The position numbers and the translations under genes were made by a program. Below, piece by piece: positions 43,495-48,627 of a stretch of DNA of 64,000 nt (its first letter is position 1; every line of letters starts with the position of its first letter). Below the pieces are notes generated by a model. It searched no databases and was not told where the DNA came from. It saw nothing but the letters and a program-made list of their open reading frames with translations. This DNA comes from Trypanosoma brucei (Eukaryota), in contig CP000070.1 of assembly GCA_000002445.1 (NCBI GenBank), forward strand, positions 1,728,001 through 1,792,000. The letters run 5' to 3'.

Positions 43495-45050
43495 ATGAAT
43501 GGCCAAGCTAATGCATTAGTTGTCACACTTTTCTTAGCAACAAACCAGGTGTCACCAGAAATCACAGCTGACGATAACGCGCTGGAGTTCAGAGCGCTAT
43601 CCCAATTTGTAAACATGGCAACCGTGGGTATCAAAACCGCATTGGCTCCACAAATTGACAAGGCAGCAGCGGCTTACATAGGTGCGCTCAACCTTACACT
43701 CGCAGACAACACCATCGCAGCGGCGGTTGACGAGGCAAAACCATGGGAACAATTAGGAAAGCCACAGCAACAAGCACTAAGCGGGAGGAGTGACTACTAT
43801 GAATATTGGCAACCAAGTAAGAAACAGATCACCGAGCACAAAAGCACAATCGAGAGCTGGATTCCCAAAACGATCACGCCACAGTTAAGAGCCAAAGTTG
43901 AAGAGTTAGCTTCCAAAGCAAAAGCAATCTACGAGCAGAGGGCCCCATCTTACACAATCACGGAACCCGTGGACCAGCTCATTAACGGAGTTTTGTACGG
44001 CAAAGCGCAACCTATAACGACATGAAAGATCCACACAGCCTCTAGCCGAGAAGCAGTGTGCTCTAGCCAGGCAAGTACTCAACAATCGGAAGCCGGTAGC
44101 GCGCTGCTGCTAGACCTGTTGTGCCTCTGCAGCTTCGACGGCAGCAACATCGCAACAAAAAAGCTTGTGGCGGACACTTGGACGCTGCCGTAACGAACAC
44201 AGGGTAGAACCCCAGCACTGGCGGTGCAGCAGAGGCAGAAAAACTTAAGACCGAATGCGCAAACTACGGCGCAGCAACACCCCTCACTCACGAATCTTTG
44301 GCGGCGGCCTGGGCCGGTCTGCGGACCTTAATCAAACCGGACAAAGTAACAACCACCAAAACAGCCAAACACATCCTGGGAAAAGTTGGAAGCACAGGCG
44401 GTTCTTACGCTGGCTGCAGCGGACGGGTCAATATCAACGGAGGGCAGTGTGTTCAATACAAGGACGAGCATTTCAAAAACAGCAAAATAACCATTCCCTG
44501 GAATGTAAACCTAGAAAACGCCGTCAAGCGAAACGCGGAAGAGGTCAAGCACGGTCTACTAATAACACAAGAAAACGCAGAACTGAAGCAAATGAACGAA
44601 ACAATAACAGCCCAGCTGGCGGGGTTCATAAAACCCCGCAAGCTGCAAAACCATCGGCAGAAAAAAAGTGACGCCTGCGCAGAGCACAAAACTAATTCGA
44701 TATGCACAAAAAATAACTGCAAATGGAATGGAACTACTGAGGACAGGGGAGAATACAAAGTAGACGAAACTAAAGTTAAAGAGCAGACAAACGCAGGAAT
44801 AGGAGATGGAGAGCAAACCTCAAAATGTACTGGACAAGACACCAAAGAGAAATGCGAAGCCGTGCAAGGGACAGCTCCCCCTGGCAAAAAATCTGTTTGT
44901 GTTTGGATAAAAGGAAAGTGCCAGGATTCCAGCTTTCTCCTCAATAAAAAATTTTCTCTGAGTATGGCTGCTGCTTTCGTGGCCTTTCTATATAAAGAAC
45001 TTTTTATTAGTTCTGTGAAATTTATGAAAATGTTTTTAGATATTTTTTAA
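43495..45050 (+). pseudogene. VSG: VSG pseudogene, with the N-terminal domain (43495-44025) and the C-terminal domain plus GPI signal (44298-45050) in different frames
   Basis: ORF 43495..44025 is VSG N-terminal-like with a signal peptide 'ALVVTLFLATNQVSP'. ORF 44298..45050 carries the VSG C-terminal domain '...CTKNNCKWNGTTEDRGEY...GKCQDSSFLLNKKFSLSMAAAFVAFL'. The two are separated by stops or a frameshift, and the GPI tail is extended (...YKELFISSVKFMKMFLDIF). Confidence 0.65.
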
Positions 45051-45240
45051 AAATTTACTAAAACTTGATATTTTAACACTTTTGTAAAACCTTTGAAAAA
45101 TTTTAAAAATTTGAAAAAACTAAGAAACTTAGTAAAGTATGTACGATTGTATCCTATAAAAGAAATGTAGTAAGGTAATGGGATATAAAAAGTGACTATC
45201 ATCATCATTTTGTAAATTTATGGATATTTGTTAGGTTAAT

Positions 45241-45392
45241 AATAATAATAATACTAATAATAATAATAATAATAATAATAATAATAATAATAATAATAAT
45301 AATAATAATAATAATAATAATAATAATAATAATAATAATAATAATAATAATAATAATAATAATAATAATAATAATAATAATAATAATAATAA
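45241..45392. repeat. Perfect (TAA)n trinucleotide tract, ~50 units: the TAA:TTA-rich component of a 70-bp repeat
   Basis: Directly visible: 'aataataataat...' runs uninterrupted for ~150 nt, apart from one 'act'. Confidence 0.95.
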
Positions 45393-46893
45393 AGTGGTGT
45401 TGAAACGACTGGAGATCGAAAGTTTAATCCCTTAAAACAGCATCATGGTGTAGTGTAAGTATGTATGTGAGTTGCTGAGTAGGGAGTTAGAGAGCAAGGA
45501 ATTTACAAAAGAAAACGAAGAAATGAAATGAGAGAAAGACGGGAGATGGATTATATGAAGTTTCAAACACTAACATGACGGTGGTTATTATCACCTTACA
45601 GAAGAAGATAATATGGGACAATAAGTAGAGAAAAAGTATAGTGTACAAGCTAAGCGGAGCTACGGTATTCGCACAAGTGCTGACAGAAAGTGGAAATGAA
45701 GGAAACAATGCACGTAATGAAACAGAAGTATTTGCATCACAGCGTAAGAAGTGAAAAAGTATGTGCAAGGGATGGTTCCCAGTATTTTACTTTAAAATGG
45801 ATAGATGCTACATTTGAGAGGAAGTTGAAATCTGTTGTTTTTAATCTCAATGAGAATCTTAATATTTTGATGTAGGGAAAAGAAGGAGTAGGAGGAGGGA
45901 TTGCGTATTTTTATGCGTGATGTAATGTTAGAGTTCTTTTCTTATCAGGAACAGTAGTAAAGATCAGCAGACATGGGAGACACTGTAAAATTATCATGAG
46001 AGAGATTTTTTAAGAGTGTACTTGTTATGTATTACTATGACCAGGAATAAACCAAGTGAAAACACGAAAAGTGCTTTAAATAGTGCATATATAAACAATT
46101 TAATGACCTCAATAAGGTTGAGATAATCAAAAACCGATACCCATCCGGCGGCGTATTTTTATACTGGGCTGCATTAATACATTTCAAGAAGTTAGTAATT
46201 TATAAGTGAATAAACACTGGTGCGGCATTAAGAAAGCTTATTCTTAATATTAAAAGTAAAAGAGCGCAATCAGAACTGCAATCTCCGGCAAAAAGACATA
46301 AGATCCCCATAATAAACCGGGATAATGACTGAATATGCTAAAGGCCGCCAGCGTACCGGCGCGTAATCTTTATTTTTTCATTGCAGATGTACCCACAGAG
46401 CAGGCATCGGAATGCTGTAGACAACGAAAATAAAAGATATATGCCTCAGGTATATATATATAAGGTTTCAATATATTTTAGAAGTCTTAGGGAATAAGAT
46501 GACAAAGTAATAGATAAGAAATTTAGAGATCACCACATTGACGCACTAAGTAAGGAGTCAAAATGACAGATTAGAGTTAGAACTCCAAAGGTAAGTTTCG
46601 GACGCAAAGCAACTGAATACATCAAAGAAAGGAGCTTACCACAAACTATAAATATCGGTGGAGGTGGACATAAAAATAAATCTTCGTTTACACTAAACAA
46701 TAAATTCTCAGAACGAAGCGGCGTACAAAGAAATGCGAAACCAAACAACGCTAACACCCTTAGGAAAAACAACAAGCCGTGGGCACGCACAGCGACTTCT
46801 ATTCTCACAATCGCTCCCAACACCAAGTGGCAAAGAACAACCAAAGCCATTGAGACAAGCAAAGGAAAACAGGCTCGTTAGTCAAAACAGAGC

Positions 46894-48458
46894 ATGAAGG
46901 CTTTGCTGACAATCGCGGCAGCCTTAACATGTCGTCTAACCCGTGGCGCTGAAAACGCAGACGGCGGTGGCTTATCAGCAAAGAGCCTAGCAACGTTGTG
47001 CGACTTGGGTGGCGACTTAAAACAAGCAGCCTACATAATGTCGACCAAACTTAAAGCACACGACGCTGCTATCCAAATACACCTGAAAAAGTTGCGGATT
47101 CTGGACACCCTTGAAGCGTGTACAAACAGCGAACGAAGGATCAAGACTACCCTTGCGCGGCTGATGTTAGCGGATTATGTACAGCATACAACAGCTCGCA
47201 ACGCAGCAGCGGAAACTGCGGTCGCAGCTGCAGCAGAGTCGGCATACTGGCCTGGCCGGCTTGACGAACTGGTAGCCATAGCAAAACAAAGCACGACAGC
47301 AACAGCCGATGCAGCATCGGAATCGATTTGCTTAGCAAACGTCGAGGCAGGACAAACAACTGCCAACGGACTCAAACACGACAGCGACCTGGCAACAGCA
47401 GGGCTCTCAGGCTGCAAGAACACGCAATCTACGACAGAGAAAACGGCAACCGCAATAAACATCCAAGAGCGGCTAAATGCGATAGGCAAAAAAAACGGCA
47501 TCTACGCTTCAGCGCCAGCAAACCCAGGCTGTATCTTAACCAAAAAAAGCACGGCGCACTACTATAAGACCCTCACCGGGCCAGCCACGCTAACTTTTGC
47601 AGGTGGAAGCATCCAACTGACGGCGCAAAACGGCGACACTGCCCCAACGAGCCAAAAACTCGGCGTAACCCAGTCAGGCAGCACATACAGCGCAAAAGCA
47701 GGCACTGGAATCAAAGAAGCCACAGACGCCGCCGCCCGAGGCATAACTGCAAGCAATATAGAAGGCCCTAAAACGCAGACCCTTTTAGCAGACGGAGCAT
47801 GGGAAACGGCGAAGAGCAACAAACTGTTGCAAGAAGCACTAAACCCCCATGAGGACGTTAGTAGCAAATACAACGAAGGCCTTCCAGAAAGCTCCAAGCC
47901 ACTGTACAGCGAGATCAGCAAACTCCACAAGAAGCTCGGGACGACGCTAGAGGCACTCGAAGCGAGTGGAGACTTTGAAACAAAGCTCAGGGCAAAATTC
48001 AGCGGCAAAAAAACATGCAAACAACCGACCATCGAAGTATCAGCTGCAACCGGCTGCAAGCAGTACTACACAAACACAACCTGCAGAACAGACAATAACT
48101 GCAAATGGGATAGCACTACAGAGGATAAAGGAGAACATTGCAAACCTAAAGATGGAGAAGAACAGACAAACACAGCAGGTGGAACAGAGGGAGCTGCAGC
48201 AACAGAAAACCATAATTGTGGCCAATATACGGATACAGAGAAATGCACCAAAGCCATAGGCAAACCGAAAGAGGGCAAAAATCTGTTTGTGTTTGGATAA
48301 AAGGAAAGTGCCAGGATTCCAGCTTTCTCCTCAATAAAAAATTTTCTCTGAGTATGGCTGCTGCTTTCGTGGCCTTTCTATATAAAGAACTTTTTATTAG
48401 TTCTGTGAAATTTATGAAAATGTTTTTAGATATTTTTAAAAAATTTACTAAAACTTGA
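46894..48458 (+). pseudogene. VSG: VSG with a C-terminal frameshift: the N-terminal and C-terminal domains are intact to 48300, and the GPI-signal region continues in another frame to 48458
   Basis: Signal peptide 'MKALLTIAAALTCRLTRGA'. The C-terminal domain is 'CKQYYTNTTCRTDNNCKWDSTTEDKGEHCKPKDGE...CGQYTDTEKCTKAIGKPKEGKNLFVFG*'. The downstream frame encodes 'KSVCVWIKGKCQDSSFLLNKKFSLSMAAAFVAFL...'. The run 'gggcaaaaatctg' here has one A fewer than the equivalent 'ggcaaaaaatctg' in the preceding VSG. Confidence 0.65.
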
Positions 48459-48627
48459 TATTTTAACACTTTTATAAAACCTTTGAAAAATTTTTAAAAT
48501 TTGAAAAAACTAAGAAACTTAGTAAAGTATGTACAATCGTATCCTATAAAAGAAATGTAGTAAGGTAATAGGATATAAAAAGTGAGTATCATCATCATTT
48601 TGTAAATTTATGGATATTTGTTAGGTT

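Follow-up and report, generated by a model that had tools for sequence, protein, structure and literature searches.

Two neighbouring VSG genes in a silent Trypanosoma brucei array share a near-identical 3′ end that resembles a fossilised segmental gene conversion

The conserved 3′ end of genes for variant surface glycoproteins (VSGs) is, as Bernards et al. 1981 and Michels et al. 1983 are said to have established, the downstream limit of the duplicative transposition cassette. The end of the C-terminal domain and the 70-bp repeat are the classical start and end points of VSG recombination (PMC4858185, PMC3708902), with the 70-bp repeats, which lie upstream in the cassette, serving as recombination homology (PMC4858185). 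3′ donation is a segmental conversion of expressed VSGs that Hall, Wang and Barry 2013 (PMC3708902) described for the active expression site in the course of infections; they saw it in 57% of the expressed VSG sequences, with one boundary in four inside the glycosylphosphatidylinositol (GPI)-signal region, and the boundaries show local homology above 85% across 13–143 bp with overall identity down to 33% (PMC3708902). About 80% of VSGs are pseudogenes or fragments, according to the passage of PMC13233330 that cites Berriman 2005 and Marcello & Barry 2007. We compared these systems with a block of DNA shared by the 3′ ends of two adjacent VSGs, here called VSG B and VSG C, in a silent array of Trypanosoma brucei. 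The window, the whole stretch analysed, comprises 64,000 nt (GCA_000002445.1, contig CP000070.1, positions 1,728,001 to 1,792,000, forward strand).

We found that the two copies of the block (Table 1) are 97.7% identical over 353 columns, with seven mismatches and one 1-nt gap (BLASTN and global alignment; E = 8e-176), and that the match continues into the TAA/TGA tract to 45274/48664 (96.7% over 392 columns). A preliminary description of this DNA had already reported the near-identical ends, and both substitutions that it quoted (tttGtaaaac/tttAtaaaac and gtacGatTgt/gtacAatCgt) are present in the alignment; it also located the block correctly, except that the second start, placed at 48289, lies about 15 nt too far right. 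The pairwise alignment with an identity profile that it had proposed for finding the breakpoint shows a sharp step. Over 40-column spans of the global alignment, identity is 0.5–0.75 upstream of the block, reaches 1.0 from 44894/48284, stays at 0.95–1.0 as far as the TAA tract and falls off abruptly after that. The sequence upstream of the block is about 60% identical, apart from one 48-nt patch with a CxxNNCKW motif (81%), and the rise from there to 100% occurs within 8 nt, at the shared GGCAAAAA of the Gly-Lys-Lys codons. Block copy 1 encodes GKKSVCVWIKGKCQDSSFLLNKKFSLSMAAAFVAFL and about 18 read-through codons, followed by the 3′ untranslated region (3′UTR) and intergenic DNA, and identity runs for about 240 bp beyond the coding tail, through AT-rich non-coding DNA, to the same point of the TAA tract in both copies. 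The tract that limits copy 2 is 88% identical to the 70-bp repeat at 55206–55280. The copies are direct repeats, 3391 bp apart, that enclose exactly one cassette (the upstream region and the body of VSG C).

This identity is far above what VSG 3′ ends in the window otherwise show. When the 3′ ends of the five window VSGs were compared, anchored on the conserved Cys codon, the family background was 54–68% for the coding tail (75 nt) and about 60% when 310 nt were taken, compared to 100% and 97.7% for B against C and a mean of 54% for shuffled sequence; identity at mere family background, which had been named as a way to refute the finding, is thus excluded. The block is the sole long, high-identity internal repeat in the array at 39–56.5 kb, where the remaining repeats are 70-bp repeats (78–92%, 41–267 bp long) and one 69-nt patch, and BLASTN found no third copy within the window. 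Further upstream, the N-terminal domains of B and C are unrelated, as had been supposed: Pfam assigns VSG_B (PF13206) to 43495–44025 (E = 1.8e-20) and an A-type domain (PF00913) to 46894–48300 (E = 2.7e-14), and the C-terminal domains upstream of the block are related but diverged.

Our verdict is that the shared block is an ordinary, fossilised 3′-end segmental gene conversion, similar to 3′ donation, within a silent VSG array. The explanation we favour, and consider somewhat probable, is a short-tract ectopic gene conversion of about 350–390 bp between the 3′ ends of neighbouring VSG cassettes, accompanied by a one-base slip in a run of A's. One old homologous-recombination event, presumably break repair by conversion, would have left both copies. 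Its tract would extend from the Gly-Lys-Lys codons on the left, where the two C-terminal-domain subtypes turn alike, to the TAA tract that belongs to the next 70-bp repeat, so that one gene's homologous tail (last Cys pair, GPI signal, 3′UTR and intergenic DNA) would have been exchanged for its neighbour's. A base would have been lost from the A-run, at or after the junction, putting the tail out of frame in VSG C, and the two copies would have diverged independently afterwards. The position of the left boundary speaks for this explanation: both the subtype of B (...CEAVxGTxPxGK...) and that of C (...NCGQYTDxxKCxKAxGKPKEGK...) natively run into GKK(S/A)VCGWIE(G/N)KCQDSS(F/I)L... tails in other VSGs. 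Because the two subtypes share this native tail, the junction lies at a homologous position where similarity rises.

Compared to 3′ donation, the block shows the same abrupt change of identity, with a common 3′ end behind low-identity 5′ parts and an unrelated N-terminal domain joined to another gene's tail, and its boundary likewise falls at short local homology in the region coding for the C-terminal domain and GPI signal. Unlike 3′ donation, it is fixed in a silent array with no active expression site, it is old (common to three lineages), it is out of frame in one gene and it includes intergenic DNA; the likeness is one of mechanism and not of setting. The block also shares its limits with the duplicative transposition cassette: one is the end of the C-terminal domain, the other the TAA portion of the 70-bp repeat. 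It is, however, an inter-cassette piece, reaching from the 3′ limit to the next 70-bp repeat, and again no expression site is involved. The preliminary description equated the block with the homology used as the downstream limit of duplicative transposition; the block may serve in this way as far as its position goes, but its 16-mer has lost 2 nt and its usual stop codon is gone. It is an array-fixed counterpart of 3′ donation, and no new kind of element is required.

The preliminary description had treated the block as a coding tail common to both genes and had overlooked the state of the reading frames. The tail is in frame in VSG B, but in VSG C it lies in the +2 frame and the open reading frame (ORF) stops at 48298–48300, nine codons into the block (...GKPKEGKNLFVFG), where the VSG C frame reads GKNLFVFG. 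VSG C is frameshifted at the junction because its A-run has five A's compared to six in B. Only model positions 1–68 of 104 of Trypan_glycop_C are therefore matched in frame (Pfam), and VSG C is left without the last third of its C-terminal domain and without a GPI signal. VSG B is itself a fragmented pseudogene. Its N-terminal-domain ORF (43495–44025) ends in a stop, and its C-terminal half lies in another frame, from about 44229 to 45050, which tblastn with B-type VSGs recovers in frame 3 only. There, Trypan_glycop_C (PF10659) is complete (44298–45050, model 1–104/104; Pfam), and the block is contiguous with this domain in the second frame (...CEAVQGTAPPGKKSVCVWIKGKCQDSSFLLNKKFSLSMAAAFVAFL...). 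A C-terminal domain ending in an in-frame hydrophobic GPI-signal tail is found in neither B nor C. With its frame disrupted upstream in B and an early stop in C, both genes are pseudogenes or atypical VSGs, and not functional VSGs.

The shared block is also degenerate in its own right: the usual stop is lost and the 16-mer of the 3′UTR is 2 nt short. Alignments to about 150 VSG homologues end at query residues 229–232, which are the homologues' own C-termini, and the block ORF is about 18 codons longer. The canonical VSG 3′UTR 16-mer is TGATATATTTTAACAC (PMC9044945, PMC10033678). The block element resembles it in its location 3′ of the coding tail and in 14/16 bases, and differs in the absence of two bases (AT) from both copies and in both genomes that we compared (see below). 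In a window-wide search allowing ≤3 mismatches, the exact 16-mer was found at none of the five VSG 3′ ends; two weak matches were returned, neither at the block, and the closest version at the array VSG 3′ ends, with 2 mismatches, follows VSG A (42379–42394). Given these defects, neither B nor C is predicted to be able to produce a GPI-anchored VSG with the 3′ end that it has. Presumably, either gene would be expressible only by acquiring a 3′ end from an expression-site VSG, as in 3′ donation, or through mosaic formation.

The age of the exchange was assessed by comparison with a T. b. equiperdum locus (L001; GCA_003543875.1, CM010678.1:1886538-1907593, 21 kb; reached via protein P0002). This locus is collinear with window positions 36772–58130 at 96–98.6% identity and holds both block copies; no gene is called there at the VSG B site. 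Its left junction in C is GGGAAAAAA, equal in total length to GGCAAAAA. The four-way block alignment has 354 columns, 10 of them variable, and four of these (45084, 45105, 45196 and 45238) separate B from C in both genomes, while the others are lineage-specific. Between orthologues we counted 2 (B–B) and 4 (C–C) differences, compared to 7–8 between B and C, so the orthologues group together; recent or ongoing concerted evolution, in which paralogues would be closer than orthologues, is not seen among the four copies. This grouping and the shared B/C differences indicate that the duplication predates the split of the lineages and that the 3′ half of the block has not been homogenised since. A third lineage carries the same truncated gene. 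The top database protein for VSG C is T. brucei VSG 1125.1161 from EATRO1125 (UniRef A0A1J0R6D0; 93% identity), followed by a T. b. equiperdum protein; VSG 1125.1161 has 468 aa and ends in ...GKNLFVFG*, exactly as VSG C does.

The preliminary description had proposed a recent segmental gene conversion. The sharp step in identity is the signature of segmental recombination, but a recent date is contradicted by T. b. equiperdum, which has the two copies at its syntenic locus. With a background orthologue divergence in the array of about 0.5% and a B–C block divergence of 2.0–2.3%, a rough clock would make the event a few times older than the lineage split, and young relative to the VSG family.

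Several points weigh against a single short-tract conversion as the full account. The short ...VCGWIEGKCQDSS tail is found with both upstream contexts in other VSGs, and among the nearest relatives of the C-terminal domain upstream of the block in B, the longer ...GWITYEDGKGTLEKPYCRDSS variant prevails. Since both contexts carry both tail variants, we claim no polarity, and transfer in either direction would fit. The variable columns are also unevenly distributed: the final 193 of the 354 columns contain all 10 (with uniform rates, P is about 0.002), leaving 161 consecutive columns invariant in all four copies (44887–45047, 48277–48437 and their T. b. equiperdum equivalents), a stretch that ends exactly at the stop of the B read-through ORF. 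A single clean event does not itself account for this clustering. Given the array background, the orthologue branches should show only about 1.6 changes in the initial 161 bp, and the deficit there is not significant; only the pooled distribution is. The 3′ half of the block is more AT-rich and homopolymeric (GC 0.21 compared to 0.30), and a resulting difference in mutation rate, a nested younger conversion or constraint are possible sources of the clustering. Finally, a third copy or an outside donor may exist beyond the window and the 21-kb T. b. equiperdum locus, and an A-X-A pattern such as this one would be equally expected from the replacement or insertion of a VSG body.

According to this last alternative, the block is the resident tail that remained after a VSG body had been copied in, the copied segment reaching from the 70-bp/TAA tract as far as the Gly-Lys-Lys codons. 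The body of C may have replaced that of B in a tandem duplicate of B, or C may have been inserted by an unequal recombination that duplicated the tail; in both cases the process would correspond, within the array, to duplicative transposition with 3′ donation, and the copies would bracket the incoming cassette. We regard it as possible but doubtful. The direct repeats do bracket exactly one cassette, both limits match the canonical limits of VSG cassette conversion (the 70-bp repeat and the end of the C-terminal domain) and the junction of body and tail is precisely where the frameshift lies, but two events (duplication and replacement) or an unusual unequal exchange are required, and the regions upstream of B and C retain no residual similarity. 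The data do not set this alternative apart from a short-tract copy of the tail. Unlikely, in our view, is a broader proposal in which the copies are the footprint of silent-array growth, unequal recombination having placed a cassette, from its 70-bp repeat to the end of its C-terminal domain, beside B and duplicated the resident tail, so that direct repeats flank the cassette in the manner of a target-site duplication, or in which repeated conversion, or selection for competence in recombination, keeps the 161-bp core invariant although both genes are pseudogenes.

Independent conversion of both tails by a third donor, with a dispersed 3′-end subfamily and coincidental adjacency, is very unlikely. 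VSG C-terminal domains and tails are known to shuffle among genes (PMC3708902), and our nucleotide search covered the window and the 21-kb T. b. equiperdum locus only. However, the identity extends far past the coding tail to one and the same point of the TAA tract, adjacency favours a local event, and protein searches found no other annotated VSG with this tail: word-indexed searches gave no match for the tail (55 aa) or for the C-terminal region of B (177 aa), an exhaustive HMMER search found 163 C-terminal-domain relatives, and the block tail was present in none of the 15 relatives inspected in full or the 27 further tails, among 150 listed. A 44-mer taken from the block had 0 exact DNA matches in collections of metagenomes and prokaryote genomes, as expected. 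Common ancestry without recombination, in which selection conserved the tail while the rest diverged, is scarcely credible. The invariant 161 columns at the 5′ end of the block would suit it, but the change in identity is a step and not a gradient, identity persists through non-coding AT-rich DNA, both genes are pseudogenes with the tail out of frame in one of them, and other VSG tails in the array reach only the family background. The chance of an assembly or sequencing artefact, either a collapsed or mis-joined repeat with a homopolymer error behind the frameshift, is close to negligible. Repeat-rich subtelomeric DNA and a frameshift in an A-run would invite such errors; against this, in the independent assembly GCA_003543875.1 both copies occupy the syntenic positions and agree with those of the window in paralogue-specific bases and in frame, and the protein in the EATRO1125 VSGnome agrees in length and end. 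Assembly collapse, which had been raised as a possible refutation, is excluded by this agreement. Local short-tract conversion between the neighbouring 3′ ends is the explanation that we favour.

If so, the block would provide a clean, datable case of 3′-end exchange between silent VSGs and would indicate that such exchanges become fixed in arrays. A gene could lose its function through a 3′-end exchange, in this case by the slip of one base at the junction, and the defective genes persist across lineages. The current understanding of antigenic variation is unchanged by the block, and the comparison with T. b. equiperdum tells more about array dynamics than the block itself.

That comparison also revealed three sharply bounded patches that are 12–26% divergent from the T. 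b. equiperdum locus (41200–41400, 47200–47900 and 53600–54200), all of them within sequence that codes for the N-terminal domain (of VSG A, C and E). They look like lineage-specific segmental conversions in silent array genes, and their location suggests that the truly recent conversions affect the antigenic domains and not the 3′ end. VSG C has three mosaic alleles (window, EATRO1125 and T. b. equiperdum) that differ mainly at aa 150–300; those of the window and EATRO1125 are identical over the last ~160 aa, and the T. b. equiperdum ORF ends at aa 351. The (TAA)52 tract downstream of VSG B is almost pure (98% matches) and has about 11 units at the same site in T. b. equiperdum; either the triplet repeat is highly polymorphic in length or the two assemblies differ here.

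Table 1. Positions of the shared block, its junctions and limits, and the VSG cassettes in the window
Feature	Position	Strand	Remark
Shared block copy 1	44883..45235	+	In frame with the VSG B C-terminal domain
Shared block copy 2	48274..48625	+	Out of frame (+2) relative to VSG C
Left junction in B	44883..44891	+	GGCAAAAAA, six A's; Gly-Lys-Lys codons where identity starts
Left junction in C	48274..48281	+	GGCAAAAA, five A's
Junction sequence of block			GAGGGCAAAAATCTG
16-mer-like element TGATATTTTAACAC	45066..45079; copy in C 48456-48469	+	Canonical TGATATATTTTAACAC minus 2 nt
(TAA)52 tract	~45236..45392	+	TAA part of next 70-bp-repeat region; right limit of identity, copy 1
TAA/TGA tract and GT-rich part of 70-bp repeat	48626..48704	+	Right limit of identity, copy 2
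VSG A	40836-42308	+	Intact, 490 aa
VSG B	43495-45050	+	Full-length, disrupted B-type VSG pseudogene
VSG C	46894-48300	+	A-type VSG ORF, 468 aa
VSG D	50226-51924	+	Frame-disrupted; in-frame TGA in tail
VSG E	53242-54885	+	547 aa
TAA tracts and GT-rich repeat units	45237-45392, 48629-48704, 52178-52435, 55104-55369

The window runs from a T. brucei-group chromosome core into a silent subtelomeric VSG array. From position 1 to about 35 kb it contains long housekeeping-type ORFs on either strand, followed by the array with its five VSG cassettes, arranged head-to-tail on the + strand. Pfam assigns VSG_B, A-type and VSG C-terminal-domain models to the five genes. TAA-rich 70-bp repeats set the cassettes apart, with 70-bp repeats upstream of each, and B and C occupy the internal array, which adjoins the chromosome core, with further VSG cassettes and ingi elements on their flanks. 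Exact-protein look-ups of VSG A, C, D and E and one core gene found no match in a collection that does not include the window's own genome, and an Rfam scan of 42–50 kb found no RNA family.

Defects at the 3′ end are present in other genes of the array as well. VSG E has no stop at the usual position (...AAFVGFIEFKSSKDNTNFRLIF*; 54820–54885), and in VSG D a TGA replaces the second codon of the C-x-N-G-S tail motif (51855–51860). In this five-VSG array, a defective 3′ end seems to be the norm. With a frameshifted full-length gene (B), a defective 3′ end (C), an in-frame stop (D), and stop-loss tails in E and in the shared block, the array resembles the VSG pseudogene archive and contains nothing unusual.

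Two sets of ingi-like non-LTR (long terminal repeat) retroelement ORFs, comprising RNase H, C2H2 zinc-finger and reverse transcriptase-like fragments (~35.6–39 kb and ~56.8–61 kb), bracket the five VSGs; the sets (35655–39000 and 56886–61300) are about 95% identical over 1.1 kb, and the first marks the core/subtelomere boundary. The final ORF before this retroelement lies at 34037–35089 (+). From its first ATG (MSSTRAALLCIGIAIMYSTGG...) its N-terminus resembles a signal peptide, as judged by eye, and its C-terminus is very acidic and His-rich (...HKTHGDDKKHDHKKHGDEDGEDEDHEDEEEGEEEE).

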